From: Gammaproteobacteria bacterium
GTDB taxonomy: Bacteria; Pseudomonadota; Gammaproteobacteria; GCA-001735895
Assembly (NCBI GenBank): GCA_018669845.1
Contig: JABHSO010000199.1
Location: forward strand, 4,945-68,944
Length of the DNA stretch: 64,000 nucleotides
Reading direction: 5' to 3'
The position numbers and the translations under genes were made by a program. Below, in pieces: positions 12,651 through 44,228 of this stretch. The notes below the pieces were generated by a model. The model ran no database searches and was not told the DNA's origin. It was given only the letters and a program-made list of their open reading frames with translations. Every line of letters starts with the position of its first letter. The first letter of the stretch is position 1.

Positions 12651-12672
12651 CTTAATCTGTTAGAATTTAATT

Positions 12673-15054
12673 ATGTTTTTTTCACGGTTATCACTCTATA
12701 CCCTGCTTGGACTGACAATTGTCTCGACTGTTGTTGTGATCATTTCATTGCAATCATTTATTTCTTACCAATCCACCAAGAAACAAATGATTGAAATTAT
12801 TCACAGTAAGTCTGCGAATAGCTTACATGTGCTACAAAAAAATATGGCTGGATTTATTGAATCCTATGCAGTTAATGAATATGACAAGCTGATATTTAAT
12901 GAAATGACTGATAATGATTATCTGGCCATTATAGTTGAAGATTACAATATGGGTAAGGTGATCGAAGAAGCCTCTTATATATCAGGAAAAATCAGAGATA
13001 GTGAATGGAATGCCATCGATTATGATGTCGAAAGTATAGCTCATCTCAAGCAGATAAAAACAGCATTTTACACAGAACAGGCCATCATCCAGGGGCAGGC
13101 AGGGGAAAAAATATCCACCGTTAAAATTTATATCTCGGATCGATATGTCCAGCTAAGACTGAATGAAATTATCCGAGAAAAAGTTGTCAGTACTGCCATA
13201 CTTATTTTAATTTTAACCTTATTTCTTTTTTTCAGTATAAGATATTTCACTATAAAACCACTAAAAAGTATTATTAAAAGCATTAGCAATACCGATCATG
13301 AAGGCATCCCTGTCAATCCAGTGGCTACCTTTGGCACCAAAGAAACCGTGGCACTTGCTAATGCTATTAACTTGATGATTGAGACAATCAAGTCTTCCAG
13401 AGTGAAATTACGTCGTACCCAGAAAATGGATGCTATCGGCCAACTTGCAGGTGGTATCGCCCATGACTTCAATAACATACTCGGAATTATTTTAGGGAAT
13501 ATTAACTTTCTCAAACATGAAGTTGGAAATAATGAGAAGGCACTAAAACGCATTAATGCTGTTGACAAGGCCACTAAACGGGCAGCCCGGTTGACTCGTG
13601 AATTACTGGGTTTTTCACGCGAGCAAGCTATCGATACGGTCAATAGTAATATCAATAGTGTCATTAAGGAAATGGACAGTCTGATTATACGATCCATTAC
13701 ACCGGAGGTAGAAGTTGACAAATATTTTGCCAAAGACCTGTGGTTGACTGAAATTAATCTGGGTGATTTTCAGGATGCATTGATAAACCTGATACTCAAT
13801 GCCCGTGATGCAATGCCTGATGGTGGGCAGTTAACCCTTGAAACTAAAAACAGTATACTTGATGCAAACTACTGCAAACAAAACCATGGTCTAACCCCGG
13901 GTGAGTATATTCAGTTGTCAGTCAGTGATACCGGTAATGGCATTAGTACCGACAAACAGGAGAAAATTTTTGAACCCTTTTATACGACCAAGCCTGAAGG
14001 AAAAGGCACTGGTCTTGGATTGGCGATGGTGTTCAGTTTTGTCAATCGTTCCCATGGTCATATCAAGGTCTATTCAGAACCTGGAATTGGTACAACAATT
14101 CGCCTGTATTTACCACGTAATCAAGGAGAAGAACCTGAGACTGAAGTTACAGTTTTACAGACTGATCCTTTACCTGGTGGCAATGAAACTATTCTTGCTG
14201 TGGATGATGAAGAAGCACTACTGGAAATTGCCAGAGAATCACTTGAGTCACTTGGTTACAGTGTAATAACTGCAACTGATGGAAAGAATGCGCTCAAGCA
14301 ACTTTTAAAATACCCTTCGATTTCATTACTATTCAGTGATGTTGTGATGCCGGGAGGTATCAATGGATTTGAGCTGGCCGAACAGGCTTCTGCCCATCGT
14401 CCCGACCTGAGTATATTGCTAACTTCTGGGTTTACCAAAAAAGCAGTAGCTCATAATGGACAGGCTCGTTTTACTTCTAATCTTCTAAGTAAACCCTATT
14501 CTCAATCAGAATTAGCACAGAGAGTACGAACTGTATTGGGTGATTCAATATCAAATGCCCAGGACAAAAAACAACAGCAGCAAACGTCTATCGATTTATC
14601 AAATTTTATTGCCCGGGATGATACTTTTTTAGTAGGTATTGATTCTATTGATGATGATCACAGGAAACTGATGAATATATTTGAAAGAGTCAATCAATTA
14701 AAAGAGAGTGGGGTAGAGCAGGACGTTCTGAAATCTATTCTTTCTGAGCTTGAAGACTATACCCGGTATCACTTTCGACGAGAAGAAACGGTAATGAAAA
14801 CTTGTGATTACCCTGACTTCTATAATCACTTGCAAGTACATCAATTATTAATTAAACAGTTAGTGGAGAAAAAGCGACACTTACAGCAAAATAGTTTGAC
14901 TGCACAGGAATTGGCAACATTTCTAACCAGTTGGTTAGTAGACCATATTCAAACTATGGATAAGGCATTTGCTCCCTATTGTGTCGGAAAAGAAGATGTC
15001 ATTAAACAGGCGCTTGATTCCCTTGCAAATGAATCAGATAAAGAGTATTCCTGA
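12673..15054 (+). CDS. hybrid sensor histidine kinase - receiver - C-terminal bacteriohemerythrin domain
   Basis: Two TM segments flank a periplasmic region of about 150 aa. HisKA box AGGIAHDFNNILGII, HATPase (GTGLGLAMV) and REC (ILAVDDEEALL...FSDVVMPG). C-terminal hemerythrin ligand pattern DDDH, HFRRE, HLQVH, DHIQTMD. Confidence 0.85.
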   Translation: MFFSRLSLYTLLGLTIVSTVVVIISLQSFISYQSTKKQMIEIIHSKSANSLHVLQKNMAGFIESYAVNEYDKLIFNEMTDNDYLAIIVEDYNMGKVIEEASYISGKIRDSEWNAIDYDVESIAHLKQIKTAFYTEQAIIQGQAGEKISTVKIYISDRYVQLRLNEIIREKVVSTAILILILTLFLFFSIRYFTIKPLKSIIKSISNTDHEGIPVNPVATFGTKETVALANAINLMIETIKSSRVKLRRTQKMDAIGQLAGGIAHDFNNILGIILGNINFLKHEVGNNEKALKRINAVDKATKRAARLTRELLGFSREQAIDTVNSNINSVIKEMDSLIIRSITPEVEVDKYFAKDLWLTEINLGDFQDALINLILNARDAMPDGGQLTLETKNSILDANYCKQNHGLTPGEYIQLSVSDTGNGISTDKQEKIFEPFYTTKPEGKGTGLGLAMVFSFVNRSHGHIKVYSEPGIGTTIRLYLPRNQGEEPETEVTVLQTDPLPGGNETILAVDDEEALLEIARESLESLGYSVITATDGKNALKQLLKYPSISLLFSDVVMPGGINGFELAEQASAHRPDLSILLTSGFTKKAVAHNGQARFTSNLLSKPYSQSELAQRVRTVLGDSISNAQDKKQQQQTSIDLSNFIARDDTFLVGIDSIDDDHRKLMNIFERVNQLKESGVEQDVLKSILSELEDYTRYHFRREETVMKTCDYPDFYNHLQVHQLLIKQLVEKKRHLQQNSLTAQELATFLTSWLVDHIQTMDKAFAPYCVGKEDVIKQALDSLANESDKEYS

Positions 15055-16244
15055 TGAATGATATAACCATCTACATTATCGATGATGAACCTGAAATGGT
15101 GGAATTGCTTTCAGATGTAGTTGAACTTGCTGGTTTGAATGTACAGGGTTATACCCTGGCAAGTAAGTTTTTTGAGAAGGTGATCCACTATAATCCAGGT
15201 GATATTCTGTTGCTTGATCTGAATATGCCAGAAATGGATGGAGTCGAGGTCATGCGAAAATTATCGACACAACAAAACCAACCGGCATTAATTCTTATTA
15301 GCGGAACTGATAAAGGACTGTTATCTGCAGCAGAGAAACTTGGCAAAGCCCATAATCTCGATATTATTACAGTCCTGAGTAAGCCAGTTAATATATACAA
15401 TTTAATACCTCTATTAAATCGAAAAAATATTACTGCCCATACAGATCATCTTTCAAATTATCTGAACCCTCTCGATAGCTCATTGACAAAAGCTGATCTT
15501 CATTATGCTATCCAAAATAACCAGTTAGTTTTGTACTATCAGCCACAGCTTGAAATCTCAACTGGAAAACTGACTTCTGTTGAGGCATTGGTACGCTGGA
15601 ATCACCCTGAGCAGGGACTTATTTTTCCTGACCGTTTTATTCCTCTGGCTGAACACAGCGGACTAATTGGCGATTTAACCAGCTGGGTAGTTAATGAGAC
15701 AATGTATCAAAATCAGCAATGGCTTAAACAGAATTTAAAGATGTCCGTATCCGTTAATATATCAGCGGATGACGTTATGAGTTTGAACTTACCTGAGCAA
15801 ATAACCGAACTGTTAAACAACAACAGCCTGGATCCCTCATCACTCACTCTGGAAGTCACAGAAAGTGCTTTAATGGGAGAGTTGGTGACATCACTGGACA
15901 TTCTTACCCGACTTAGATTGAAAGGAATCAAATTATCAATAGATGATTTTGGTACTGGTTATTCATCTCTTTCTCAATTACATAAAATCCCCTTTACCGA
16001 ATTAAAAACTGATCGCAGTTTTGTTGATAAAATAACAACAGACAGTGAGGCCAGAGCTATTGTAAAAACCTGTATTATTCTGGGCCATGAAATAAATATG
16101 AAAGTTGTTGCTGAAGGGGTAGAAGACCAGCAAACCTGGGAACTTCTCAGTAATCTGGGCTGTGATATTGCACAGGGTTATTTTATTGCTAAAGCCATGC
16201 CAGGAGATGTTTTTGTCGATTGGGTTAACAGTCGAAATTTGTAA
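15054..16244 (+). CDS. response regulator with EAL (c-di-GMP phosphodiesterase) output
   Basis: REC domain (IIDDEPEM...LLLDLNMPEMDG) plus EAL domain (EALVRW, DDFGTGYSSL). Its ATG overlaps the kinase stop by 1 nt. Confidence 0.85.
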   Translation: MNDITIYIIDDEPEMVELLSDVVELAGLNVQGYTLASKFFEKVIHYNPGDILLLDLNMPEMDGVEVMRKLSTQQNQPALILISGTDKGLLSAAEKLGKAHNLDIITVLSKPVNIYNLIPLLNRKNITAHTDHLSNYLNPLDSSLTKADLHYAIQNNQLVLYYQPQLEISTGKLTSVEALVRWNHPEQGLIFPDRFIPLAEHSGLIGDLTSWVVNETMYQNQQWLKQNLKMSVSVNISADDVMSLNLPEQITELLNNNSLDPSSLTLEVTESALMGELVTSLDILTRLRLKGIKLSIDDFGTGYSSLSQLHKIPFTELKTDRSFVDKITTDSEARAIVKTCIILGHEINMKVVAEGVEDQQTWELLSNLGCDIAQGYFIAKAMPGDVFVDWVNSRNL

Positions 16245-18305: not shown

Positions 18306-20036
18306 TTATTCCTGAGGTACCCAGCTGTTGATGCTTGCTCCCTCACTTAAGTTAGTAGTCCAGATGTAACTGTCTGCCCAGATGTAACCATCAGCCCAGA
18401 TGTAACTATTGGCCCAGATGTAACCATTAGCCCAGATGTAACCATCAGCCCAGATGTAACCATCGGCCCAAATGTAACCATCGGCCCAAATGTAACCATC
18501 AGCCCAGATGTAACCTGTGCTCTGTGAATAACTGCCATCCCACAGTGTATATTGACCACCATCGGGATCCATCAGGTAATAGTTACCTACTTCATCCTGG
18601 TTAACCGGGCCGCCGTAGTGCTCGATATTATCCAGATCTTTGCTGATATCCATGCCGCGATTGGCACAACCTATGGCTGTGCTGTAAACCGCGTTATAGG
18701 CATCTACCATGCCAGAACCTTGCTGTAGGATGCTGTAGGCCAGTTTACCTTTACGGGTGCTCGCAGTACGAGCGGAATCAATCAGGCGGCATTTAACGTC
18801 ATCCGGTGTCAGGCTTGGATCGGCCTGCAGCATCAGAGCTACTGCTCCGGTGACAACCGCTGTGGCCTGTGATGTACCAGACATGGTAAAAAATTCTCTA
18901 TAAGTGGGCTCCATAAATTCAGGATGATCAATGGCAAGCTGGTGCCCTGATTTATCCAGTAGCGCTAGAATATGTCCACCGGGTGCAACCATATCAGGTT
19001 TAACAAAACCAGCATGGGTGGGGCCTGCTGCCGAGAAGGAAGCGACCACATCATCGCCTGAATCATCAGGTGTATAGTTGTCAGTCATTGCGCCTACGGT
19101 AATGACATAAGGAACATTGCCGGGCACACCGATAGTCATAGGATCTGGGCCGGTGTTGCCTGCAGAGGCAACTACTACGATACCCGCTTGCCAGGCTGCC
19201 ATAACAGCCTGATTGAGTGGATCATCATAATAATAAGATTTTGGTGGAGCACTGAGGGAAAGGTTGAGTACCCGGATGTCGTAGGTATCTTTGTTTGCAA
19301 CGAGCCAGTCAATGCCTGAAATAACCCCGGCATAGGTGCCTTGACCATCTGCATCGAATACACGTACCGAAACCAGATCGGCTTCTGGCGCCATGCCATT
19401 GTAAAGTTGTGACGTGGTCTGGCCATAACTCATGATGATACTGGTAACGTGTGAACCATGGCCACTGTCATCATGAATGTCACTTTCGGCTTTTTTGTCG
19501 GGTTTATTGATATCGTACTGGGCCAGTACTCTATAGCCATTGCTATCATCGATCAGGTGACTTTTGTTCCACAGACCGGTATCGAGTACAGCAACTGTTA
19601 CGCCATCTCCAGTAATACCCTCTGAATGCAATGCAGATGCTCCAGTAAAAGTTGGGTAGCAAGTGTTGAGATACTGGTCACTACTGGGTTCGCACATACT
19701 GACCTGTGAACTATCACTGGGTTTGCCAGAGAGTTCAACAGGGCTATCGTCGTAGATATGCAGAATATCTTGATGCTGGCGCAGAGTTTGGAGGCTGGTA
19801 TTGTTCAGCTTGACGCTGACAGCATTGATGATGCCGAGCTCGTGAGTGATTTCACCGCCAACGGATGAGACTGCTACTTTTACAGACGCTATATCTGTAC
19901 CCTGAACAATAAGTGATTTTAACTCAGTCTTATTGGGAATTTGTAATATCGCTACAGAGCTTAGAATTACGAGTCCAACAGTTACTGCCAAGATTCTATG
20001 TTTTTGTTTAGAATTTATCATTTGATAACTTCTCAA
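18306..20036 (-). CDS. secreted subtilisin-family (S8) serine protease with C-terminal hexapeptide-repeat tail
   Basis: Signal/anchor peptide. Catalytic triad contexts VAVLDTGL (Asp), HGSHVTS (His), SGTSQATAVVTG (Ser). The C-terminus is GYIWAD repeated about nine times. Confidence 0.85.
   Translation of the reverse strand: MRSYQMINSKQKHRILAVTVGLVILSSVAILQIPNKTELKSLIVQGTDIASVKVAVSSVGGEITHELGIINAVSVKLNNTSLQTLRQHQDILHIYDDSPVELSGKPSDSSQVSMCEPSSDQYLNTCYPTFTGASALHSEGITGDGVTVAVLDTGLWNKSHLIDDSNGYRVLAQYDINKPDKKAESDIHDDSGHGSHVTSIIMSYGQTTSQLYNGMAPEADLVSVRVFDADGQGTYAGVISGIDWLVANKDTYDIRVLNLSLSAPPKSYYYDDPLNQAVMAAWQAGIVVVASAGNTGPDPMTIGVPGNVPYVITVGAMTDNYTPDDSGDDVVASFSAAGPTHAGFVKPDMVAPGGHILALLDKSGHQLAIDHPEFMEPTYREFFTMSGTSQATAVVTGAVALMLQADPSLTPDDVKCRLIDSARTASTRKGKLAYSILQQGSGMVDAYNAVYSTAIGCANRGMDISKDLDNIEHYGGPVNQDEVGNYYLMDPDGGQYTLWDGSYSQSTGYIWADGYIWADGYIWADGYIWADGYIWANGYIWANSYIWADGYIWADSYIWTTNLSEGASINSWVPQE
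18360..18521. repeat. nine tandem 18-bp units (consensus ccagatgtaaccatcagc) inside the S8 protease gene
   Basis: Read directly from the sequence: units start at 18360, 18378, 18396, 18414, 18432, 18450, 18468, 18486 and 18504, each with a few substitutions. Confidence 0.95.
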
Positions 20037-20821: not shown

Positions 20822-21400
20822 CTAATCACTTTTTTTGGTAGCGTTCTGAAAAACTTCAGGCCAGAATTCTTTAACGACAGGACTGGTATTGGCATAACTA
20901 TGACAGCTATTGATAAATTTTGAAGGTTGATTTACCTGGCTTTGGTTATCTGAATTCTCGCCATCAGGTCCATCCAGACTGACTAAAGTTTGAAAAGCAG
21001 TGGTTGCAACAGGACCTAATAACTCTGTTAGATGTGTGCAGCCTTTGGTGCCGCCCATGATATCTCTTAATTTTCCTCTCCAGCCGGGTCCAATTTGAAC
21101 GCCAATCAATTGTTTGAAAATATCAGAAATAGATTTGCAATAATCGTACGGTGTGTAATCCATCACAGCACTTGCATCTTTGATTAACATATCTCTATCG
21201 ATGGTGATTCGAATCGACATACCATGTAGAGCTTCTCCTGCTTTTATAAAACCACCACGATCTTTATTGGGGAAATCAAAAGGTTTGGTATCTACCAGGT
21301 GCCCTTCGATATCGACTAAACCATCATCTCTTAGATAGCCTTCACAGGTTACTTTACGTGTGTGGACTAATTTACGCTCGATAGAAGGAGATAGTGGCAT
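20822..21400 (-). CDS. DUF2889-family protein
   Basis: N-terminus MPLSPSIERKLVHTRKVTCEGYLRDDGLVDIEGHLVDTKPFDF and the later IGPGWRG...GCTHLTELL match my memory of the DUF2889 family. Confidence 0.65.
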   Translation of the reverse strand: MPLSPSIERKLVHTRKVTCEGYLRDDGLVDIEGHLVDTKPFDFPNKDRGGFIKAGEALHGMSIRITIDRDMLIKDASAVMDYTPYDYCKSISDIFKQLIGVQIGPGWRGKLRDIMGGTKGCTHLTELLGPVATTAFQTLVSLDGPDGENSDNQSQVNQPSKFINSCHSYANTSPVVKEFWPEVFQNATKKSD

Positions 21401-21614: not shown

Positions 21615-22127
21615 TCATACACCACCCGAATGTATGACTTTGTAATATATCTTTTCTAATTCATTTTTATGTTCAGTTTCTTCATGGGCGAGATAGGTGA
21701 ATAAATCTTTAATTGGACCTTCTTCAACTTCTGCTGCTAGAGAGGTGTATTGTTCCATGGCAGCCTGTTCACGGGACAGTGCATATTGCAAAATAGACTG
21801 GTCATCCGGGGTTTCTCCCATGTCTTTGGCCTGGACAGCATCTGAAAACCGGTTGTTGCTGGGAGGCGTTGCTACCATGTCAGATAATTGGCTTTCTATT
21901 TCTGGGTTGACCAGCAATTCAGAGAATAAATTGTAATGCTGCTCTTCTTCTTCGGCCAGTTCTTCAACCAGGTAGCGAATTTGCTTACCGACTTTGGGGA
22001 TTAGGTCAGTGTAAAAATCCTGCGCTGCTTTTTCAAATTGAATTGCGACTTCGAGGATTTCTCTCAGTGTTTTTTTTGATGCCAGCAATTCTCGGCTGCT
22101 GCTGGTATTTTCTGAATCTCTGCCCAT
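21615..22127 (-). CDS. rubrerythrin/ferritin-like di-iron protein (no rubredoxin domain)
   Basis: Two E...ExxH motifs (EELAEEEEQH and AHEETEH) in a four-helix-bundle-sized protein. The ATG at 22125-22127 is chosen, 1 nt after the stop of the upstream gene. The longer ORF-track start overlaps that gene. Confidence 0.7.
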   Translation of the reverse strand: MGRDSENTSSSRELLASKKTLREILEVAIQFEKAAQDFYTDLIPKVGKQIRYLVEELAEEEEQHYNLFSELLVNPEIESQLSDMVATPPSNNRFSDAVQAKDMGETPDDQSILQYALSREQAAMEQYTSLAAEVEEGPIKDLFTYLAHEETEHKNELEKIYYKVIHSGGV

Positions 22128-22128
22128 T

Positions 22129-24000
22129 TTATTTACCTGAAGAATTCTTTTTAGTTGTGGACATAAGTTGTTGCTCAATACTGGCAGCAACCCGATGTCC
22201 ATCAGCAACGGCATGTACAACGTCCGGGCCGTTAACACAGTCACCGGCTGACCATAACCAGTCCTCTGATGTTCTGCCATCTGCGTCTACCTGTAACCTG
22301 CCGCGATTCCATTCCAGTTGTTCGGTGAGTTCTTTACCCAGTAGAGAGGTATCGGCAAATTGCCCAATTGCTTCTATGACTGCCTCACAGTTATGAACCA
22401 CTTCCTGTTCTTCATCATATTGAGGTACAAATCGATGCTGTTCATCGAAAATAGAAGTGACTTTCCAGGTTTTAAGGCCTATCAGCTTTCCGTCAGTATC
22501 GATTTCACAGCCCTGAGGTCCACAGCTATCTTTAATGATAATGCCTTCTTCCAGAGATTCTTTAATTTCATCCGGGTCGGCCATAAAATGTTGTTGCTCT
22601 TCGAGGGCCGTCAAGGTTATCTGAACTTTACCGTATTGCTGTTTTTGCAATCTAGCCAGAGAACGGGCTATATCCATGGCAACATTACCGCCACCGATGA
22701 CTGCGACACTGTGTGGCAGTTCAAATTCTTCACCACTGGATATTTTCTGTAATAAATCTACGGCACGATAAACATGTCGATGATCGGAGTTTTTGATTCG
22801 CGTCTGGCGACCTTGAGACAGGCCAATAGCTAAAATAACAGCATCAAAGTTTTTATGCAGTGTGCTCATCCGTTTGTTTTTACCGATTTTACAATCATAA
22901 TGAATCGTCACGCCAAGAGAAGTAATAATATCGATATCCTGCTGCAAGGTATCGAATGGCAGACGATACTCAGGAATGCCGTAACGGGTCATACCACCGG
23001 CATGGGGCAGGGCCTCGAATACTTCAACTTTATGACCTGAACGAACCAGGTCAAAGGCGGCAGTAAGACCCGCAGGTCCTGCACCAATAATAGCGATCTT
23101 CTTGCCACTGGATTTAGAGGTGCTGCCTTCGTTGACAATTTCTTTAATACGTTCATGGCTGACAGAATCCATCGCATAACGCTTTAGCCAACGAATGGCA
23201 ATGGGCTCTCCACGAATACCGATGGAGCAGGCATCTTCGCAGCGTCTGGTACAAACTCGGCCACAAACGTGTGCAAAAGGATTGGTGCGATATATCTGGC
23301 GAACGGCTTCTTCGGCATCATTATTCCAGATAGCTCGAATATATTCCGGTGCATGCATATTGGTAGGGCAGGAGTCATGACACATGCCACATTGCACACA
23401 GCGTGAAGCTTCAAGCACAGCCTGTTCCGGGGTAAAGCCATCGACAATCTCATCAAAATTATCAATTCTGGTTTCAGGTTCCAGTTCAGCCATTGCACTG
23501 CGGGTCAGGCTGAGTAAATCGGAGTGTTCTGTTTTTTGCCAGCCTTTACCAAAATGCTCTTTATGCATGCCATTTGGATCAGGCAGAATAAAATAGCTGT
23601 CGATGTGCTCCTGATCGCAGGTGTGTACATACTCACGCGATAAAGACAGTGAAGAACTGGGACAGATATCCACGCAAAGCGCACACCAGCAGCAGCGACC
23701 GTAATCGATAGCCGGGCGATGGTTACGAATACCTTTTACCGGATCATTAGGCAGGCTGGGAATTTCCACCATGGTGATTGCAGCGTTATCACAGATTTTT
23801 TGGCAGCTTGCACAACCGACACATTCTTCCCAGTCGTTCAAGTGAAAGCCGCGATAATTCAGTGAGGCTAGTCTCGGCTTCAACGGTTCTGTAATTGGTT
23901 TACGCGCCAGAAATTGTAAATTTTTAAGCGGATTGAGCAGTGAACCGGAATCGCTGTGATCTATCACGGGTGTTTTTTTAGGCTTCAGATTTAATTTCAT
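22129..24000 (-). CDS. fusion protein: NuoI/MbxN-like 2x[4Fe-4S] subunit + GltD/SudA/NfnB-like NAD(P)H-FAD oxidoreductase
   Basis: The first ~135 aa carry CVGCASCQKIC and CCWCALCVDICP, as in NuoI/MbhN. From about residue 190 it is GltD-like: RCVQCGMCHDSCP, NPFAHVCGRVCTRRCEDAC, dinucleotide folds KKIAIIGAGPAGLTAA and VAVIGGGNVAMD, and MTRYGIPEYRLP. Confidence 0.85.
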   Translation of the reverse strand: MKLNLKPKKTPVIDHSDSGSLLNPLKNLQFLARKPITEPLKPRLASLNYRGFHLNDWEECVGCASCQKICDNAAITMVEIPSLPNDPVKGIRNHRPAIDYGRCCWCALCVDICPSSSLSLSREYVHTCDQEHIDSYFILPDPNGMHKEHFGKGWQKTEHSDLLSLTRSAMAELEPETRIDNFDEIVDGFTPEQAVLEASRCVQCGMCHDSCPTNMHAPEYIRAIWNNDAEEAVRQIYRTNPFAHVCGRVCTRRCEDACSIGIRGEPIAIRWLKRYAMDSVSHERIKEIVNEGSTSKSSGKKIAIIGAGPAGLTAAFDLVRSGHKVEVFEALPHAGGMTRYGIPEYRLPFDTLQQDIDIITSLGVTIHYDCKIGKNKRMSTLHKNFDAVILAIGLSQGRQTRIKNSDHRHVYRAVDLLQKISSGEEFELPHSVAVIGGGNVAMDIARSLARLQKQQYGKVQITLTALEEQQHFMADPDEIKESLEEGIIIKDSCGPQGCEIDTDGKLIGLKTWKVTSIFDEQHRFVPQYDEEQEVVHNCEAVIEAIGQFADTSLLGKELTEQLEWNRGRLQVDADGRTSEDWLWSAGDCVNGPDVVHAVADGHRVAASIEQQLMSTTKKNSSGK

Positions 24001-25139
24001 CGATCCACCTCCGGAGGACAGGCATCCAGAGAAAACATGGTTTGAGCGACATCTTCAACACGACAGCCAACGGCTAATTTTTCCAGCACCTGAACAGCAT
24101 GCATGGCAGATGGTCCTCGAATATGAACACGGTAAGGTTTTTCTCCACCGTTTGAGACGACATAATAAGCCAGTTCACCTTTGGATGACTCGACTCTTGC
24201 ATAACTGTCTCCAGCGGGCACACGCCAGGCCAGAGGGTTAGGAATAGGGGTTCGAACAGGGCCTTTAATATCCGGTAAGGCTTTGACTACCTGACGAATG
24301 ATGCGAATACTCTCGACCATTTCAAGGCGTCTAACCAGGGTTCTAGCCCAGGCATCACCTGCCTGTTCAGTAGGTATATCAAATTTAAGCTGATCATAAA
24401 TCAAATAGGGGTCATCACGTCGTACATCAAATTCGAGACCACAGGCACGTAGATTAGGGCCGGTAACACTCCATTCGAGAGCCTGTTCCTGATTAATAGT
24501 GCCAATGCCTTTTGCTCGCTTAACAAAAATTTGATTAGTAAAAAACAAATTGTCGTAATCTTTTAAACGGCCATCAATATAATTCAGCGTGTCAGTGACC
24601 CGTTGTAGAAAACCATCCGGGATATCCTGCCTTACTCCACCGGGTAAATTGTAAATACTGTAAACACGGCCTCCTGTCAGTTCTTCAAATAAATCAAGTA
24701 ACAGGTCTCGATCGGCAACACCCCAGTACATAGGTGTATACATGCCGGTCGTGGCTGCGTGCCCACCGAAGTAAAATAAATGTGCTGCAATGCGGGATAA
24801 TTCCAGTTGTAAAACGCGTAGCCACTGGGCTCTTTCAGGAACTTCAATGCCGGCAAGATCTTCAACGGCTAGTGAATAACACACTTCCATTGGAACAGGA
24901 TCGGGCACACAGATGCGTGGAACCAGTGCGATATTTTGAATCCACAGGCGGTCTTCCATCAATTTTTCGAAACCACGGTGCAGGTAACCGGCATCGGCTC
25001 TGGCTTCGACAACCGTATCACCCTGTAGTTTGACTTTCAGCGCATAGTTGCCTTCAATTCCCGGATGATTGGGGCCAAAGTTGAGTTCGAATTCATTGCT
25101 GGGCGGATGATTAACCGACTGATAGTTTTCAGGTCTCAT
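23997..25139 (-). CDS. NuoD / [NiFe]-hydrogenase-large-subunit-like catalytic subunit (MbxL/MbsL-like)
   Basis: GPNHPGIEGNYAL...GYLHRGFEKLMEDR matches the NuoD/HycE family. The NiFe Cys pairs are degenerate: RICVPDP and C-terminal DACPPEVDR. Confidence 0.85.
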   Translation of the reverse strand: MRPENYQSVNHPPSNEFELNFGPNHPGIEGNYALKVKLQGDTVVEARADAGYLHRGFEKLMEDRLWIQNIALVPRICVPDPVPMEVCYSLAVEDLAGIEVPERAQWLRVLQLELSRIAAHLFYFGGHAATTGMYTPMYWGVADRDLLLDLFEELTGGRVYSIYNLPGGVRQDIPDGFLQRVTDTLNYIDGRLKDYDNLFFTNQIFVKRAKGIGTINQEQALEWSVTGPNLRACGLEFDVRRDDPYLIYDQLKFDIPTEQAGDAWARTLVRRLEMVESIRIIRQVVKALPDIKGPVRTPIPNPLAWRVPAGDSYARVESSKGELAYYVVSNGGEKPYRVHIRGPSAMHAVQVLEKLAVGCRVEDVAQTMFSLDACPPEVDR

Positions 25140-25140
25140 T

Positions 25141-25704
25141 TTAGTGCTCCTTCATCCTGATAGATTCAGGAGTGCTGACTACACCACCACCCTGTTTCTC
25201 AAGGTCTTTCAACCAGTCCGGGTGATACTCCTGCCAGCTGAATGTTTCCATAACCCATTTTTCTGAATTAAAGTCTTTGCGCATGGGAGGTGGTCCATTC
25301 CATTCGGTTAAAATGAACTTACTCATGTCTGGACTGCCTTCAAAGTAAAGGCCAAACATTTCGTGGATGTCACGTTCAAAAAATGCAGCGGGTGTATAAA
25401 TATCAAATACAGATAAATAAATACCGGGGTCTCGAGGAATTCGAATATGAGCTGAAATCAGTACCGATGTTTCATAAGACCACAGATGATAAACAAGTTC
25501 GAACTGGTTTTCCTCGATCCAGTCGACGCAGGAAATTGCAGATAGATGGACATAACTGGCACGTCCTCGCAGTAATGCGAGTAATGCGGGCAGAGCTTCG
25601 GCAGCAATATCAGCACGTAAACGGCGTGGATTATGATGGGTGAGGTGTATGCCTTCAATTTCCTGCAACAGTACATTGAGATTTTGAGAGTGTGCGGCAC
25701 TCAT
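25141..25704 (-). CDS. NuoC-like (30 kDa) subunit (MbxK-like)
   Basis: FERDIHEMFGLYFEGSPD motif typical of NuoC/HycE-N. Sits between the NuoB-like and NuoD-like genes. Confidence 0.8.
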   Translation of the reverse strand: MSAAHSQNLNVLLQEIEGIHLTHHNPRRLRADIAAEALPALLALLRGRASYVHLSAISCVDWIEENQFELVYHLWSYETSVLISAHIRIPRDPGIYLSVFDIYTPAAFFERDIHEMFGLYFEGSPDMSKFILTEWNGPPPMRKDFNSEKWVMETFSWQEYHPDWLKDLEKQGGGVVSTPESIRMKEH

Positions 25705-26402
25705 AGCTTCATCTCCAATGGTTCCAGCGGACGTTGAACTGACTCAAGAATTTTTGTGTGTTCACCCAGAGTATTGGGGCCTTCTAATTTATAAGTTTTG
25801 GCTTCACCGATAATATCGGTTGGTGTCTGCCAGTTATTTCCAAATAAATGTTGTTGATTGCCGAGATAATAGTCGTAGTTCGCGTAGTACTGTTTCCACG
25901 AATTAGCTTCATCGGTTTTAATCTTTTCCATCAACTGCTGCAGACCTTCCATCACCGCTTCCGGTCTGGGCATACAACCGGCGATATATAAATCGACAGG
26001 AACATACTCGTCCAGTTTTTTTGCTGTAGCATAACTTTGCCAGTACATGCCGCCATTGACGGTGCAGGAACAGATTCCGATAACGTATTTAGGCGCACCC
26101 ATCTGTTCATATGTCAGTATGACCCGTTTTAATGTTTTGATAGAAACATAACCGGTGATCAGCAGGATGTCAGCCTGACGTGGTGTAACCATCGGCTGAA
26201 TGCCCAGTCTTTCCATATCGAAACGAGATGTCATGGCCGGGGGTAATTCTATTGCACCACAACCGGTGCAATAGTGCAGCATGAACATCGAACGAGAACG
26301 GCAGAAGCTGACCAGTTCATCAAACACATTAGCAAATGGATTGCTACGCTTTGCGACCGGTTTCTGGTTTACTTCAATTTTATCGAGGTCAGTATTACTC
26401 AT
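25701..26402 (-). CDS. NuoB-like [4Fe-4S] subunit (MbxJ-like) with a C-terminal extension
   Basis: Cluster Cys contexts YCTGCGAIE, GICSCTVNGG and IAGCMPRPE. About 70 extra C-terminal residues. Confidence 0.8.
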   Translation of the reverse strand: MSNTDLDKIEVNQKPVAKRSNPFANVFDELVSFCRSRSMFMLHYCTGCGAIELPPAMTSRFDMERLGIQPMVTPRQADILLITGYVSIKTLKRVILTYEQMGAPKYVIGICSCTVNGGMYWQSYATAKKLDEYVPVDLYIAGCMPRPEAVMEGLQQLMEKIKTDEANSWKQYYANYDYYLGNQQHLFGNNWQTPTDIIGEAKTYKLEGPNTLGEHTKILESVQRPLEPLEMKL

Positions 26403-26427
26403 TAGGCTTTCTCATCGATTGGCTCCT

Positions 26428-27336
26428 TTAATTCATCACGAACGCGATACCAATCAGCGCCAGCATGACAGGCCACTTCCACACCAGACGCACAAGATCA
26501 TCGGTGCGATAACGAGGGAAAAGGTAAGCGATAACAACAGGTATTGCCAGGACACCAAAACACTTCAGCAGAAAGGTAATCCAGTTTTCTCCACCACCCA
26601 GAAATAGTGAAACGTAAAGCACACTGGCGGTATAAAGCTGAAAACTTTGCATGACGAATAAACCACCCAGAAACTTCCCACCCATTTCGACCATAGGGCC
26701 AGTGGCTATTTCTGCTGGTGCAATATAGATTTCAAAAGGTTGTTTTCCAAGCGAAGCATGCATAGCGAATAATCCGGCAAGTGCAAGCACTGGCATTTCA
26801 CTGATACCCCAGGTGCTGAATCCACCTGCCTGCTGGGTAGCAATAATGTCCACCAGATTGGTGCTGCCAAATTGATAAGCGACACCGAAAATGACGATGA
26901 TAAAAGGAATGTCATAAGCCAGCATTGAAGTCAGTGCGCGAGATATACCTATTGAACCATTCGGGTTTGCGCATTGACCAACCCCGAGTGCCAAGCCAAG
27001 AGAAGGCACCATGGTCAGGTAAGCCAGTGTGATAATGCCACCTTGAGCAGCGATACCATTCATGCCGGGAACGGGCAGTAGTGCTTCAGCGGCCACATAT
27101 CCACCCACGGCCATAACGATGCCAATGTCATGAATTAAACCATGTGATACCTGGGTCTGTTTGCCGTACAGCTTGATGATGTCATACAACGGTTGAAACA
27201 GGGGAGGACCGACACGTCGCTGTAATCTAGCCGCAAGTTTGCGCATCATCAAAACCATGAATAAACCGATGATGAAGGCCACTATCGGCATCATGATAAC
27301 TTCTATGATGGTGAGTAGAATATCGTTCATCGCCAT
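26428..27336 (-). CDS. NuoH/HycD-like membrane subunit (MbxM-like)
   Basis: RKLAARLQRRVGPP motif and about eight TM helices. Confidence 0.8.
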   Translation of the reverse strand: MAMNDILLTIIEVIMMPIVAFIIGLFMVLMMRKLAARLQRRVGPPLFQPLYDIIKLYGKQTQVSHGLIHDIGIVMAVGGYVAAEALLPVPGMNGIAAQGGIITLAYLTMVPSLGLALGVGQCANPNGSIGISRALTSMLAYDIPFIIVIFGVAYQFGSTNLVDIIATQQAGGFSTWGISEMPVLALAGLFAMHASLGKQPFEIYIAPAEIATGPMVEMGGKFLGGLFVMQSFQLYTASVLYVSLFLGGGENWITFLLKCFGVLAIPVVIAYLFPRYRTDDLVRLVWKWPVMLALIGIAFVMN

Positions 27337-29211
27337 CTATTGTCCTGTAAAAAAGTAGAGTGAAAGCGTTGCTGCTATCAATAAAAACAGAGCTGGATGA
27401 AAACTGTTAAAGAGTATCTGAGTGAAGCCGCTCAACAGACTGACAATTGAAACCAGTGATGCTTCAAGCCATTGGAAGGTGCCTCGATACCAGCCACCGA
27501 TATGGTGCATCAGGCCGGCATAAAAATTATTACTGTAATGGTAGCGGGTATCGGCTGTGAGGAAATGTCCGCCGGCATAATTGTCCAGCTGGTGAACGCG
27601 TTTAGTCTTATTACCAGAGTAAAACAGTAATGCTCCGACACCAAATCCACCAAATAACACGCCACATATCCAAATCATGTCAAGGCTACCTCGGGTAGAT
27701 TCAACGCCACCGAGGTGATGCACAACCTGAGGAATACCTATGGATGCCTGTGCAGCAGCCACCCAGTCCAACACCAGTCCCGGCATGAAACCGGTGATAA
27801 AGACCACGGCCGATAACAACAGCATAGGAATCATCATGCTCCAGGGCACCTCACGAATCTGTTCATGTTCCAGTCGAAGTTGTCCCAGAAACGTATTATG
27901 AATGAGTTTATACACCGAAAGAATCGTGCCCAATGTGCCTATAACTGCGGCCACAAAAAGTAATGGCATGCCTTCAATAATCAGTGAACGATACACCAGC
28001 CACTTGGACACAAAACCGTTCATGGGTGGAATGCCTGCCAGGCCGATAATGCCGACCAGCATCACCATAAAAGTTAAGGGCATGCGAGCAACCAACCCAC
28101 CAAGCTGGTTTAAATCTGATGTTTTGGTGCGATAGATAACCGATGAAACCGACAGGAACAGTGCTGCCTGATAAGTCGCGTGATTAAATACATGCATCAA
28201 ACCACCGGCACTGCCAAAGGGATCGAGTACAAGCACACCCATCAACATATAACCACCCTGACCGATGCCATGCCAGGCTAATAATCGACGTGCATCATTT
28301 TGACGAAGAGCCGTGAAGGTTGCAAAGATCGTGGTGAAAGCCGCGATCCACATGATAAAATCACGCAGAGAAAAGAAGGTATAAGGTATTTCAATTTCTA
28401 TCAGTCGTGCCAGACCCACTAACTGAATGATGACAACCAGAATGGCATAAAGACCCATGCGAGAAGATATAGAACCCAGAAATGCTGTGCCGGGACCGGG
28501 TGTTTCTGCATAGGCATCTGCTTGCCAAAGATGGAATGGAATCAAGCCCATCTTGATACCAAAGCCCACGATGAATAACAGGCTCAGAGTAGTGACTTGT
28601 ACTGTATTAAATTTAGGGGCTATAGCGGCCAGATCAGAATAGGAAAATGATCCGGTTAAATGGTAAATAAACCCGAGACCAGCCAGAACAGCCATGGCTC
28701 CTGCCGTAGCGTAAACGATGTACCTCAATCCATATTCAGTGGCTTTACCACCGGCTATCACCATCAATAACAGACTTGCCCAGCTGACCAGTTCCCATCC
28801 GATGAACAGTGAAAGCAGGTCGCCACTGCCGAGCAAAACCAGCATGGCAAATACATTGAGTGCGATTGAAAATTGTAACAACCCTGGTTTGCCACCATGT
28901 TTCAGATGGTCTTTAGCCCACGATCCGGCTGCAAACATTGAACTGGTTAAAGCAGCACCGATTGTGATCAGTGCAAAAAACCAGGATAGGCCATCAAAGC
29001 GCCAGCTAAGTGGTTGGCCAAGTATGGACAGGTTGAAAGAAGATTCTATGGCTGCGCCGCCATAACCGAGGCTTCCCATGAACAGTAAATTCAAAAATTG
29101 AGCGGTAAATAAAGCTGCCGTTACCCAGCCGATCAAATGCTGTTTTTGTCCCAGTCCGGAAATAACCGCTGTTATTAACGAGAGTAATAGTAAGGTATCA
29201 AGTGCACTCAT
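27337..29211 (-). CDS. NuoL/MrpA-type antiporter-like subunit (MbxH'-like)
   Basis: 624-aa polytopic protein with the Proton_antipo_M core (GWELVSWASLLLM). Confidence 0.8.
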   Translation of the reverse strand: MSALDTLLLLSLITAVISGLGQKQHLIGWVTAALFTAQFLNLLFMGSLGYGGAAIESSFNLSILGQPLSWRFDGLSWFFALITIGAALTSSMFAAGSWAKDHLKHGGKPGLLQFSIALNVFAMLVLLGSGDLLSLFIGWELVSWASLLLMVIAGGKATEYGLRYIVYATAGAMAVLAGLGFIYHLTGSFSYSDLAAIAPKFNTVQVTTLSLLFIVGFGIKMGLIPFHLWQADAYAETPGPGTAFLGSISSRMGLYAILVVIIQLVGLARLIEIEIPYTFFSLRDFIMWIAAFTTIFATFTALRQNDARRLLAWHGIGQGGYMLMGVLVLDPFGSAGGLMHVFNHATYQAALFLSVSSVIYRTKTSDLNQLGGLVARMPLTFMVMLVGIIGLAGIPPMNGFVSKWLVYRSLIIEGMPLLFVAAVIGTLGTILSVYKLIHNTFLGQLRLEHEQIREVPWSMMIPMLLLSAVVFITGFMPGLVLDWVAAAQASIGIPQVVHHLGGVESTRGSLDMIWICGVLFGGFGVGALLFYSGNKTKRVHQLDNYAGGHFLTADTRYHYSNNFYAGLMHHIGGWYRGTFQWLEASLVSIVSLLSGFTQILFNSFHPALFLLIAATLSLYFFTGQ

Positions 29212-30704
29212 TGAACTTTACTCATTTGTTGATCCAGACTTGTTTGCTTTCTCATCGGGGCCTGCTTTGTTGAAAACGTGGTATTTATATACAAAGCACG
29301 GTCACTACTTTCTGCTGCAATCTTATTTAGCTTATTGCCTAAAGGCGCCAGAGTGACAAGTGCCACAATCAACACCACAGCGAATACAGATACAATGGTT
29401 AAATTGAAGGGTGTCTGATGAAGTTTTTTGCGCTGCTTCTTTTTACCTTTGGAATAAATATGTATAGCTGTGCGCATTAAATAATGAGCTTCGATAACGG
29501 TTGCCGTTAATAGAACTACCAGGGCAGTGATATAGAGTGATGCACTGGCTTCCACAAGGCCGTTCACCAGTAATAGTTTTGCCCAGAAACCGGGTAGAGG
29601 CGGTACGCCAATCAATGACAATGCAAATATCATGAATAATATAGCTGCCAGAGGTGAGCTTTTAGCAGCGCCTTTCAGTTTGTCGATTGCTCCGTTCCAG
29701 TATTCTGTCAGCATGAACAGTGCAGGTTTGACGATGAGATGATGTAACATCATAGCGATACCGGCGAACATACCGGCTTCACCGGGAATAGAAAAAGCGA
29801 CCAGCACCATGCCCAGTTGACCGATGGATGAAAAAGATAACATCCGTTTCAAATCCCTGGAACGCCAGGCCGATAGTTCACCCCAGAAGATGCCGAGCAT
29901 ACCCAGAACCAGTAGTAAATTTAATGCTTCAGGTACCTGGTAAGCCACCACCAGCAGTCTGATGATAACCAGTACCGCCAGTTTTGAAATGAGTCCTGCG
30001 AGCAGGGCGCTGATACGTGGACTTGCGGTGGAATACACTTCTGGAACCCAGCCATTGACTGGAAAAATTTCAGCTTTGACACCTATACCGACAACGATTA
30101 ATGCGAATGCAGAGAGTCCAACCGGGTTATTAAGCTGAGAAGCCAGCAAACCGATATGAGCTAAATTTAGTGTGCCGGTCTGGGTGTAGATGAGGCCGAT
30201 ACCGGTTAATGCCAAAACCGTGCCCAGTCCGCTCATGACCAGATAACGAAAAGTAGCTGCAAAAGCGGCACCGGTACGATTGGCAGCAGCCAGTCCAAAG
30301 GAAGCAACAGAAAGTAGTTCATAGAAAACGTAAATGTTAAACAGGTCACTGGATAAAGCCAGTCCACTTGCTGAACCGGCCAGCAGTAATAATAATGATT
30401 CTTCACGATAGCCTTCTTTGTTGGCGTAGGGCCATAGCAGTAACATGATTAACGGGATAATGCAGGCCATTAATAATGAAAGATTATCCAGATGAAAAGT
30501 GATGCCTAGCGGTGGACGGAAGCCGCCGAGAGCAATGGCTATAGGGTGTTCAAGCATATTAAAGTAAGCCAGTGCGAACCCAAGCATCGCCAGCAGAACG
30601 AAGGGGCCGATAAAGCGCGCAGCTGATTTTGAATTATTGCTTATGATGGGTAATAGAAATGCGGTGAGCAAAGGTAGCGCGACATTGAAAGCTATGTTAT
30701 TCAT
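29208..30704 (-). CDS. MrpD/NuoN-type antiporter-like subunit (MbxH-like)
   Basis: 498-aa polytopic protein (FYELLSVASFGLAA). 4-nt overlaps with both neighbouring genes. Confidence 0.8.
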   Translation of the reverse strand: MNNIAFNVALPLLTAFLLPIISNNSKSAARFIGPFVLLAMLGFALAYFNMLEHPIAIALGGFRPPLGITFHLDNLSLLMACIIPLIMLLLWPYANKEGYREESLLLLLAGSASGLALSSDLFNIYVFYELLSVASFGLAAANRTGAAFAATFRYLVMSGLGTVLALTGIGLIYTQTGTLNLAHIGLLASQLNNPVGLSAFALIVVGIGVKAEIFPVNGWVPEVYSTASPRISALLAGLISKLAVLVIIRLLVVAYQVPEALNLLLVLGMLGIFWGELSAWRSRDLKRMLSFSSIGQLGMVLVAFSIPGEAGMFAGIAMMLHHLIVKPALFMLTEYWNGAIDKLKGAAKSSPLAAILFMIFALSLIGVPPLPGFWAKLLLVNGLVEASASLYITALVVLLTATVIEAHYLMRTAIHIYSKGKKKQRKKLHQTPFNLTIVSVFAVVLIVALVTLAPLGNKLNKIAAESSDRALYINTTFSTKQAPMRKQTSLDQQMSKVQ

Positions 30705-31186
30705 TTGTCACCTCCCTGGTTTAGCTGAGCAGTTTCATTTTGTGCTGATGGCTCAGGTAAAGGACGTTCACCCGCAGGCTGCTCGCTGCTTAACAGAGAA
30801 ATCACGCCGCTATTACTGTCGATGTCAGTCGATAGTCTCTGGTGGATTTCACGTATATCGAGAGTTTTGTAGTTTTGATAAACTTTTAGGACCAACGCCA
30901 GTGCCAGTGCCTGAATACCGACACCGATGACAATAGAAGTTAATACCATCGCCTGTGGAACCGGGTCGACCATCAGCTGGTTAACCGACGACCCCGTTAA
31001 AATGGGCGCAATTGCATCGAAGCGATAACCGGCAATCACCAGTAACAGGTTGGCTCCTGCTTCAGCGATGACCAGAGCCAGAACGATGCGGAAGATATTG
31101 TTCAATGTCACCACACCGACAATACCTATAACGATTAAACCCATGGCTCCGCCGTAGAGTAACCAGTGAATCAGGTCTGTAGTCAT
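30701..31186 (-). CDS. MrpC/NuoK-like subunit (MbxG-like) with a hydrophilic C-terminal tail
   Basis: Three TM helices of NuoK/MnhC type, then a polar tail of about 50 aa. Confidence 0.7.
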   Translation of the reverse strand: MTTDLIHWLLYGGAMGLIVIGIVGVVTLNNIFRIVLALVIAEAGANLLLVIAGYRFDAIAPILTGSSVNQLMVDPVPQAMVLTSIVIGVGIQALALALVLKVYQNYKTLDIREIHQRLSTDIDSNSGVISLLSSEQPAGERPLPEPSAQNETAQLNQGGDK

Positions 31187-31941
31187 GATCCGTTACTCTC
31201 CGTTTGCAGTGATGATTCTTCCAGGTCAGTTGATTCTGGCACTATTTCACCAATCTCAGCCAAATTAGCCAGTAAGCCGGAAAGCTCTGCACCCACTTTC
31301 AAACCAACTGCGGTATAAAGTAATGGCAGTGTACCGGCTGAAAGAAGTGAACCCATTTCACCGTGACTAAAAAAAGGTTGTAGAAAAGCATTGCCCTGAA
31401 ATAACGCGATAATGCCAATCACTATAAAAGATGCGCCGGCAAAACCTTCGACCAGAGCCAGTCCACTGTGATTAACCCCGCGTCCGGGTACTGCTAGCAA
31501 GGGTAGAAAGAAAGCAGCTGCCAGAATAACACCGCCCTGGAAACCACCGCCCGGTGTTAAATGACCGTGCAGAATAATGTACATGCCAAGGGTAATGAGT
31601 AGAGGGAAAAACAAACTGGCACTGCTGGCCAGGATAGTGCCTTCATCTCTGATGCTTTCTTTTTTGTTTGAAGATGATTTTGTAGATAATGAGCTTAACA
31701 CCAGTGATGTTGCGGTAGATGCGGTAAAAAGTATCGCAATTTCTCCCAGCGTATCAATTCCCCTGTAACCCAGTACCACTGAAGTAACCAGGTTGGCAGC
31801 TCCGACTTCATCGGCTCCCTGTTGTAATATTGCTTCACCGATTAACATAGGAGCACCACCGACAACGAATTGCCAGGTGATGACCAGCAGTAAAAAAGCA
31901 AGACCAGAAGCAAACACTAAAGCACTGACATTACGCATCAT
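31183..31941 (-). CDS. MrpB (MnhB)-domain membrane subunit (MbxF-like)
   Basis: NLVTSVVLGYRGIDTLGEIAILF is the MnhB signature. Confidence 0.7.
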   Translation of the reverse strand: MMRNVSALVFASGLAFLLLVITWQFVVGGAPMLIGEAILQQGADEVGAANLVTSVVLGYRGIDTLGEIAILFTASTATSLVLSSLSTKSSSNKKESIRDEGTILASSASLFFPLLITLGMYIILHGHLTPGGGFQGGVILAAAFFLPLLAVPGRGVNHSGLALVEGFAGASFIVIGIIALFQGNAFLQPFFSHGEMGSLLSAGTLPLLYTAVGLKVGAELSGLLANLAEIGEIVPESTDLEESSLQTESNGS

Positions 31942-32197
31942 TTTGCTCCGACTGTTGTTTACCGTGGTTTTTATTAATTCGGAATAAAGCCAGTGCCAGA
32001 ATAACCGTGCTTAAACCAGAACCGACAACTGCTTCGGTCATCGCAACATCAGGTGCTTGCAGGATGACGAATAATACCGACAGGGCCAGTGATACAGCTG
32101 ATGTAGCGGCGATAGCAGAAACATGGCTCTCTACAAACAAAACGGTGATAGCCCCGGCTAACATTATGATAACCATCAATGCGATAACCCAGGTCAT
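31931..32197 (-). CDS. DUF4040 / MbhD-MbxD-like small membrane subunit
   Basis: 88 aa with three TM helices and the APDVAMTEAVVG motif. Confidence 0.6.
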   Translation of the reverse strand: MTWVIALMVIIMLAGAITVLFVESHVSAIAATSAVSLALSVLFVILQAPDVAMTEAVVGSGLSTVILALALFRINKNHGKQQSEQNDA

Positions 32198-41932: not shown

Positions 41933-41941
41933 GATGAGCCC

Positions 41942-44226: not shown

Positions 44227-44228
44227 GA

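Follow-up and report, generated by a model that had tools for sequence, protein, structure and literature searches.

We analysed a 64-kb window, that is, a 64,000-nucleotide stretch of contig JABHSO010000199.1 from a gammaproteobacterial genome assembly, which contains an open reading frame (ORF) of 623 aa in which a NuoI/MbsN-like ferredoxin-type domain runs directly into a flavoprotein module of the NfnB/GltD type. The fused gene is the thirteenth of 14 closely spaced genes that make up a minus-strand operon (33292 to 21615) for a membrane complex that has been named MBX in papers on Endoriftia (PMC11636981) and Thermotoga (PMC9431562). The fusion is laid out as follows:

22129..24000, minus strand: the whole fusion, 623 aa, a NuoI/MbsN-like domain followed by an NfnB/GltD-type module for FAD, NAD(P)H and two clusters
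23614..23946, minus strand: MbsN/NuoI-like domain, aa 19-129, with two CxxCxxCxxxC motifs for two [4Fe-4S] clusters
23470..23613, minus strand: linker between both modules, aa 130-177
23152..23469, minus strand: Fer4_20 domain, aa 178-283, with eight Cys for two [4Fe-4S] clusters (Pfam, 1.3e-29)
22210..23100, minus strand: FAD and NAD(P)H dinucleotide-binding domains, aa 301-597 (Pfam Pyr_redox_2, 4.3e-28)

The ORF starts with ATG, has no internal stops, and in translation carries the motifs CVGCASCQKIC (aa 60-70), CCWCALCVDICP (aa 102-113), RCVQCGMCHDSCP (aa 200-212), VCGRVCTRRCEDAC (aa 245-258), IAIIGAGPAGL (aa 302-312) and VAVIGGGNVAMD (aa 432-443). Residues 59-116 matched the Pfam families Fer4_9/Fer4_7, a NuoI-type dicluster, and among solved structures aa 19-129 were closest to MbsN of the Pyrococcus furiosus MBS complex (6u8y_N, about 2.5e-20 to 2.5e-19), with the cysteines spaced as MbsN C61/64/67/71 and C96/99/102/106. 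The best structures for aa 167-613 were the NfnB-type subunits 4ylf_B (1.9e-60) and 5jca_L (NfnI-L, 1.1e-57), with true GltD behind them at 1e-42. Pfam, the structure matches and all listed motifs agree with the domain reading given in a first-pass annotation of this DNA, namely a NuoI/MbxN-like N terminus followed by a GltD/NfnB/SudA-like flavoprotein.

Cofactor-binding residues were compared across 18 fused proteins, aligned at identities down to 35%. All eight cysteines of the MbsN-like domain (C60, C63, C66, C70, C103, C106, C109, C113) and all eight of the Fer4_20 domain (C201, C204, C207, C211, C246, C250, C254, C258) were invariant, as was F182 at the start of the latter. The C-terminal part does contain FAD and NAD(P)H residues, both dinucleotide motifs being invariant: G306/G308/P309 in the FAD GxGxxG motif and G436-G438/D443/R446 in the second, GGGNVAMD. 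The linker varied in length among lineages, with G153 and R167 nearly invariant. An AlphaFold2 model computed from the 18-sequence alignment had a mean pLDDT of 86.1 and a pTM of 0.82, and was weak only at aa 1-50 and 126-131 (pLDDT <50 at aa 126-131); the pTM hints at a defined packing of the predicted domains. Foldseek placed the C-terminal module of the model closest to NfnI-L (5jca_L, TMt 0.89, root-mean-square deviation 2.3 A), with further matches to Xfn, Thermotoga maritima NfnB (4ylf_B) and Azospirillum brasilense GltD (6s6s). The module has the fold of NfnB, NfnI-L and GltD (4YLF_B, 5JCA_L, 6S6S; TMt 0.86-0.89), their eight cysteines for the clusters and their Rossmann motifs for FAD and NAD(P)H, but differs from this family in being fused to a NuoI domain of the complex I type and in having no NfnA/S or GltB partner.

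The junction between the two modules (about 23430-23600, aa 133-190) is continuous, and orthologous loci show neither a stop nor a frameshift there. A protein identical to the fusion is indexed in 136 assembly blocks, and a word-indexed search returned >100 homologues that span 96-99% of its length at 66-95% identity, from symbionts of Lamellibrachia, Escarpia and Seepiophila, Ca. Thiodiazotropha, Sedimenticola, Gallionellaceae and Chromatiales. Exhaustive HMMER searches of 50%-identity representatives added about 13 clusters with end-to-end matches at 37-48% identity, including Thermosipho melanesiensis (a cultured species whose genome is complete), candidate division WOR-3, Ca. Hydrothermae and Spirochaetaceae. 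Carriers of uninterrupted homologues (35-95% identity) comprise sulfur-oxidising Gamma- and Betaproteobacteria, Thermosipho, WOR-3, Hydrothermae and Spirochaetaceae, and a single-frame match to the fusion was found in 14/14 genome loci compared.

Contrary to what the first-pass annotation had implied, the architecture is not new, having been modelled in NCBIfam and noted in 2015. The family NF010590/PRK13984 ('putative oxidoreductase', 611 positions) models the entire NuoI-GltD fusion, and aa 20-615 of the window protein matched its positions 10-609 with 772.2 bits (E = 2.9e-232). This lies below the equivalog cut-off of 946 bits, as does the score of a tubeworm-symbiont protein (803.7), whereas the Thermosipho protein P0122 passes it (1194.7); judged by sequence, the window protein represents the NF010590 architecture on a more distant proteobacterial branch. 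An mbx-like operon in which a GltD-related flavoprotein replaces NuoI and is followed by rubrerythrin was described by Degli Esposti 2015 (PMC4758237), and that description fits the window locus exactly. The putative Mrp-Mbx complex of Ca. Endoriftia persephone was reported by Mitchell et al. 2024 (PMC11636981) as of 'function/direction unknown', and the NAD(P)H fusion is not discussed there. Fusions 67-73% identical to the window protein occur in the symbionts of Lamellibrachia, Escarpia and Seepiophila, in Ca. Thiodiazotropha and in Sedimenticola.

Upstream and downstream of the fusion, in operon order, the remaining genes are:

32783..33292, minus strand: MrpE-like membrane subunit at the MbsA position, first gene, 169 aa (Pfam MNHE, 1.2e-34)
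32520..32786, minus strand: MrpF-like, 88 aa (Pfam MrpF_PhaF, 1.3e-16)
32194..32523, minus strand: MrpG-like, 109 aa (Pfam PhaG_MnhG_YufB, 9e-26)
31931..32197, minus strand: MbhD-like, 88 aa (Pfam MbhD, 5.6e-19)
31183..31941, minus strand: MnhB/MbhE-like, 252 aa (Pfam MnhB, 1.1e-20; MbhE, 1.1e-5)
30701..31186, minus strand: NuoK/MrpC-like, 161 aa (Pfam Oxidored_q2, 1.6e-19)
29208..30704, minus strand: antiporter-like pump at the MbsH position, 498 aa (Pfam Proton_antipo_M, 9.1e-51), position conserved in all loci
27337..29211, minus strand: second antiporter-like pump at the MbsH' position, 624 aa (Proton_antipo_M, 6.4e-53; 6u8y_X, 618 aa, 1.2e-55)
26428..27336, minus strand: NuoH/MbsM-like membrane anchor of the peripheral arm, 302 aa (Pfam NADHdh, 1.4e-51)
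25701..26402, minus strand: NuoB/MbsJ-like subunit of the proximal [4Fe-4S] cluster, 233 aa (6u8y_J, 5.3e-66)
25141..25704, minus strand: NuoC/MbsK-like, 187 aa (Pfam Complex1_30kDa, 1.1e-25)
23997..25139, minus strand: NuoD/MbsL-like without a NiFe site, 380 aa (6u8y_L, 3.9e-119, full length)
21615..22127, minus strand: rubrerythrin-like di-iron protein without a rubredoxin domain, 170 aa (Pfam Rubrerythrin, 2.1e-14)

Pfam gene identities and conserved gene order support a place for the fusion at the end of an operon of the Mrp-NuoH/B/C/D type. In tblastn searches of all window proteins against 14 genome loci, the order was identical in all 11 loci that reach across the operon (metagenome-assembled genomes of Gammaproteobacteria, a lucinid symbiont, Hydrogenophilales, Parasulfuritortus and Thiobacillus). 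Thermosipho melanesiensis (ABR31076.1) has these 14 genes in the same order, with 616 aa for the fusion and 167 aa for the rubrerythrin-like gene, and so does L018, a closed genome of 3.49 Mb; the MrpE-like gene likewise comes first in loci L001-L012, the Thermosipho locus (L015) and L018. Fusions from Thermosipho and the window are 46% identical and have all cofactor residues in common.

Among solved structures, chains of P. furiosus MBS (membrane-bound sulfane reductase, formerly MBX, 6U8Y) were the top matches for the L, J, M, H' and N equivalents, ahead of MBH, complex I, NDH-1 and FHL, with a margin of 20-80 orders of magnitude for L, J and M. The 380-aa NuoD-like subunit matched MbsL at 3.9e-119 compared with 1e-78 for Nqo4 and 9e-37 for MbhL, and the 302-aa NuoH-like subunit matched 6u8y_M at 3.6e-53 compared with 6.5e-17 for MbhM and 1.3e-15 for NuoH. 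MBS and the window complex have in common the Mrp-type module, the two antiporter-like pumps, the M/J/K/L/N equivalents and their order. They differ in that MbsN of P. furiosus is a stand-alone protein of 208 aa fed by free ferredoxin, whereas the MbsN-like domain of the window runs into a 450-aa NAD(P)H flavoprotein module and is followed by a rubrerythrin-like gene; the hosts differ as well, a mesophilic proteobacterium against a hyperthermophilic archaeon.

The resemblance to MBS extends to the redox site. In MBS, the site of polysulfide reduction is a proximal [4Fe-4S] cluster that has only three cysteine ligands, MbsJ C28/C93/C123 (Yu 2020, PMC7684303). The MbsJ-like subunit of the window aligns ungapped with 6u8y_J over aa 26-192, and its C48, C113 and C143, the counterparts of these ligands, were invariant in nine homologues. 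Its sequence has C-T-G-C, an MBS-type C-x-x-C, instead of the tandem Cys-Cys of complex I, so that the residues agree with a proximal cluster which, as in MBS, would be held by three cysteines on a shortened loop. In the MbsL-like subunit, C77 and C374 take the alignment positions of the vestigial cysteines C85 and C385 of MbsL, the C-terminal CPPxxDR is common to both proteins, and the quinone ligands H38 and Y87 of Nqo4 are replaced by E29 and V78, as in MbsL. We conclude that the redox site is of the MBS type, because the quinone and NiFe ligands are missing and the three MBS cysteine ligands are kept. A NiFe hydrogenase of group 4 (MBH/Ech/Hyc) was rejected: one Cys of each CxxC pair (L1, L2) is left (C77, C374), MbhL is distant at 9e-37, and the NiFeSe_Hases Pfam match of the NuoD-like subunit fell below threshold (18.8 vs 25.8). 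The vestigial cysteines and the absence of both a NiFe site and quinone ligands are again features shared with MBS.

Variation at the site was seen in a proteobacterial subgroup (L005, L009, L010 and L012, MbsJ- and MbsL-like genes at ~7500-10000) in which the fusion is ~60% and MbsL ~46% identical. In it, C45 of the MbsJ-like subunit, the equivalent of the non-ligand MbsJ C25, is Gly and the equivalent of MbsL C385 is Tyr, which is consistent with both cysteines being dispensable; among the positions compared, only the three ligand cysteines are left in the NuoB-like subunit of this subgroup. Two extra cysteines, C34 and C111 ('GICSCTVNGG'), are present in the MbsJ-like subunit of the window and of its closest relatives, L002-L004, and are missing from P. 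furiosus, Thermosipho and the other subgroup. The MBS-type catalytic-site residues are direct observations, as are gene identity, cofactor-binding residues and synteny.

The rubrerythrin-like gene that closes the operon encodes a protein with two E...ExxH motifs and is translationally coupled to the fusion, its ATG (22127) lying 1 nt past the fusion stop ('...ggt aaa taa a atg ggc...'). It was found directly downstream of the fusion in 13/14 genome loci, in Thermosipho and in L018. In one homologue of 764 aa (P0121) a rubrerythrin-like domain is attached to the C terminus of the NuoI-GltD protein, which ties this gene functionally to the complex. Conservation and occasional fusion together suggest that the rubrerythrin-like protein is probably an unrecognised extra, fourteenth subunit of bacterial MBX, where it would probably serve as an attached peroxide scavenger or an accessory redox subunit.

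Domain order and operon context support the inference in the first-pass annotation that a pyridine-nucleotide module has been placed on the electron-entry subunit of an Mbx-like, ion-translocating complex. On balance we lean towards the view that the fusion is the terminal peripheral-arm subunit of bacterial MBX, the counterpart of archaeal MBS within the complex I/Mrp superfamily, and that this complex translocates ions and links NAD(P)H to sulfane sulfur. For the electron path, substrate, direction and ion coupling, we infer that the fused NfnB/GltD module would connect the Fe-S chain with the pool of NAD(P)+ and NAD(P)H, with electrons passing between NAD(P)H, FAD, the two Fer4_20 clusters, the two NuoI-like clusters and the three-Cys MbsJ-like cluster. 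Their terminal partner would be sulfane sulfur (polysulfide), bound in a chamber formed by the MbsL-, MbsJ- and MbsM-like subunits, and redox turnover would be coupled to H+ or Na+ movement via the two antiporter-like subunits and the Mrp-type module. With potentials of about -320 mV for NAD(P)H and about -260 mV for polysulfide/sulfide, the two couples differ little, so the reaction should be near equilibrium and reversible. In fermenters such as the Thermotogota it could run forward as NAD(P)H-driven sulfur reduction, whereas in sulfur-storing oxidisers it could run either way, and direction may vary by organism. Indirect support comes from T. maritima, in which mbxA was up 4.4-fold with S0 (PMC9431562), and from Endoriftia, in which Mrp-Mbx was co-expressed with sulfur-globule proteins, hydrogenases as well as the rTCA (reductive tricarboxylic acid) cycle (PMC11636981).

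Several points weigh against an NAD(P)H-linked sulfane-sulfur complex. Calculated from standard potentials, the transfer of electrons from NAD(P)H to polysulfide yields ~12 kJ per 2 e-, which is comparable to the yield of MBH and seems too little for two pumps. Ferredoxin-driven MBS has about 42 kJ for two pumps (PMC8165549). The substrate assigned to the MbsJ/MbsL site is carried over from a single archaeal homologue. Ferredoxin could still be a donor to the NuoI-like domain, and C111 of the MbsJ-like subunit, which precedes ligand C113 by two residues, could provide a fourth ligand and alter the chemistry of the cluster. No biochemical study of a bacterial MBX, or of the fusion itself, turned up in our literature search, in line with the earlier remark that no characterised complex with this fusion was known.

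A further point concerns the preference for NADH or NADPH. The Arg-Arg that follows beta2 of the NADPH fold in 4ylf_B is Thr-Ala in the fusion (aa 465-466 in the alignment), with Glu next. YRR was kept at this place in 4/18 fused proteins, P0129 (Hydrothermae), P0130, P0131 (Spirochaetaceae) and P0137; most members have Thr-Ala as in the window protein, and the second of the two types into which the family splits, '(A/S/C)LE' with an LQKQQYG-type insertion that NfnB lacks and most fused members have, includes the proteins of the window, the symbionts, Thermosipho and WOR-3. From sequence, the split between YRR and (A/S/C)LE may correspond to NADPH as opposed to NADH use. Some NADPH-dependent GltD-type subunits lack the basic pair after beta2, and the motif is for this reason not decisive between the two nucleotides.

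Within the same NAD(P)H-sulfane sulfur reading, MBX might run in reverse of archaeal MBS in sulfur-oxidising, sulfur-storing autotrophs, ion influx via the Mrp-type module and the antiporter-like subunits driving the oxidation of sulfide or polysulfide at the three-Cys cluster and pushing electrons ~60 mV uphill to NAD(P)+ by way of the fused flavoprotein; this is a tentative proposal that we think rather unlikely. If it were true, it would explain why two pumps are kept despite the small forward energy yield, and why the fusion is frequent in tubeworm and lucinid symbionts, Thiobacillus and Gallionellaceae. It would also provide a direct and cheap route from sulfur to NAD(P)H, with no need for reverse electron flow by way of quinones and complex I, a route for chemolithoautotrophs of which we know no description.

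The alternative that fares best, which we nevertheless regard as doubtful, is an Rnf-like ion-translocating ferredoxin:NAD(P)+ oxidoreductase, or its gradient-driven reverse, which would supply the rTCA cycle or nitrogenase with reduced ferredoxin. This function has been stated for Thermotoga and a proteobacterial operon (Degli Esposti 2015, PMC4758237) and for Mesotoga in a preprint (10.1101/322537), through which the older idea of Mbx as an NADP:ferredoxin enzyme (Schut 2013) is conveyed. It draws on the docking of ferredoxin by the NuoI-like subunit in MBS (Yu 2020, PMC7684303), on co-expression of the Endoriftia MBX with a ferredoxin-dependent rTCA cycle (PMC11636981) and on an energy of about 30 kJ per 2 e-, enough for pumping. 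However, the founding example in P. furiosus was later shown to reduce polysulfide, not NADP+ (PMC8165549, PMC7684303), and Rnf is encoded as well in Thermotoga and the tubeworm symbionts. Electrons that moved between ferredoxin and FAD alone would miss the proximal cluster, which lies at the membrane interface. Conservation is nonetheless highest in that cluster with its three ligands and in the MbsL/MbsM chamber, at 57-62% identity to an archaeal hyperthermophile, and a ferredoxin:NAD(P)+ enzyme would give this best-conserved catalytic site nothing to do.

A confurcating or bifurcating enzyme, for example one in which ferredoxin and NAD(P)H jointly reduce polysulfide in the manner of Nfn, is improbable. 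The nearest structures of the C-terminal module are indeed bifurcating enzymes (NfnB/NfnI-L, Nfn-ABC, StnC), ahead of true GltD, and the energy of ferredoxin would cover the shortfall of NAD(P)H alone. Nfn nonetheless needs a second, high-potential branch, NfnA/S with [2Fe-2S] and FAD, and no PyrK- or NfnA-like partner gene was found in the 14-gene operon, the 64-kb window or the Thermosipho locus, which speaks against the bifurcating arrangement floated in the first-pass annotation. The identical fold serves as a linear NADPH input in glutamate synthase and dihydropyrimidine dehydrogenase. Because no such partner was found, a linear role from NAD(P)H through FAD to the clusters is likelier than bifurcation.

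More improbable still is a simplified complex I, an NAD(P)H:quinone oxidoreductase with the GltD module in place of NuoEFG. NCBIfam would name the 380-aa subunit NuoD (NF004739, 452.6 bits, cut-off 360) and the 233-aa subunit NuoB, and the proteobacterial host has quinone-dependent respiration, with cytochrome genes at 59926..62678. Pfam searches found no NuoE, NuoF or NuoG gene in the operon, and no structure of complex I or NDH-1 comes anywhere near as close to the subunits as MBS does. The alignment of Nqo4 His38/Tyr87 to Glu29/Val78, as in MbsL, and the MBS-type C-x-x-C of the NuoB-like subunit in place of tandem Cys-Cys led us to reject quinone reduction on active-site residues, the quinone ligands being absent. 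An assembly or frameshift artefact joining two genes is practically negligible, nothing having been found in its favour, and is ruled out by the orthologous loci, the identical protein in 136 assembly blocks, the uninterrupted homologues in complete Thermosipho genomes and the closed 3.49-Mb genome, the curated full-length model NF010590, and the even longer P0121 with its rubrerythrin-like domain.

The operon (21615..33292) has a GC content of 46% compared with 40-41% in both flanks, and a mildly raised GC at third codon positions (0.39-0.46 vs 0.30-0.40). Composition and the 57-62% identity of core subunits to a hyperthermophilic archaeon are compatible with, though not diagnostic of, an old inter-domain transfer; the shift is too mild to call a recent horizontal transfer. 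After a gap of 214 nt, which is also present in the identical contig L017, the operon is followed by a DUF2889 protein (20822..21400, minus strand, 192 aa, 1.2e-42) for which tblastn found no match in any of the 14 related genome loci, not even in L001 with its 94% identity. Beyond it lies a subtilase-family protease (18306..20036, minus strand; Peptidase_S8, 1.6e-51) whose C terminus carries about ten tandem 'GYIWAD'-type hexapeptides.

A second GltD fusion occurs in a 2-oxoacid:ferredoxin oxidoreductase cluster (40286..44810, minus strand), which encodes gamma (44229..44810), alpha (42970..44226) and beta (41942..42940) subunits followed by a 548-aa protein with a GltD-type module (Fer4_20 and Pyr_redox_2) fused to a PorD-like dicluster domain (NF009410, 699.7 bits, cut-off 516). 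With two such fusions in one window, NAD(P)H modules on ferredoxin-facing subunits are a recurring design in this genome, a point in favour of the NAD(P)H-linked reading of MBX. A polyferredoxin-like protein of 161 aa (45133..45618, plus strand) is divergent from this cluster, and genes at 52002..55548 (minus strand) encode a radical SAM/SPASM protein that has one PCP_red domain and a Usp protein of 708 aa that has three. On the plus strand, a sensing and cyclic di-GMP cluster (8067..16244) encodes a protein with a hemerythrin domain, a GGDEF-EAL protein whose sensor domain is Tll0287-like, a periplasmic binding protein, a hybrid histidine kinase that carries hemerythrin at its C terminus and an EAL-domain response regulator, which suggests oxygen- or iron-responsive signalling near the operon.

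The fusion and its operon have already been catalogued and named MBX, such that as a discovery they add little. The gap lies in the published bacterial models, which predate or ignore either the direct reduction of polysulfide by MBS or the complex's own NAD(P)H module; the Thermotoga model still has ferredoxin as the donor. The carriers also differ in lifestyle, in that the Thermotogota with MBX (13-subunit in T. maritima) are fermentative sulfur reducers, whereas the window host is related to sulfur oxidisers and symbionts. If bacterial MBX is an NAD(P)H-linked, ion-coupled sulfane-sulfur oxidoreductase, this would matter for the way in which fermenters unload NADH on sulfur, and for how abundant sulfur-oxidising symbionts balance reductant, stored sulfur and two pathways of CO2 fixation.

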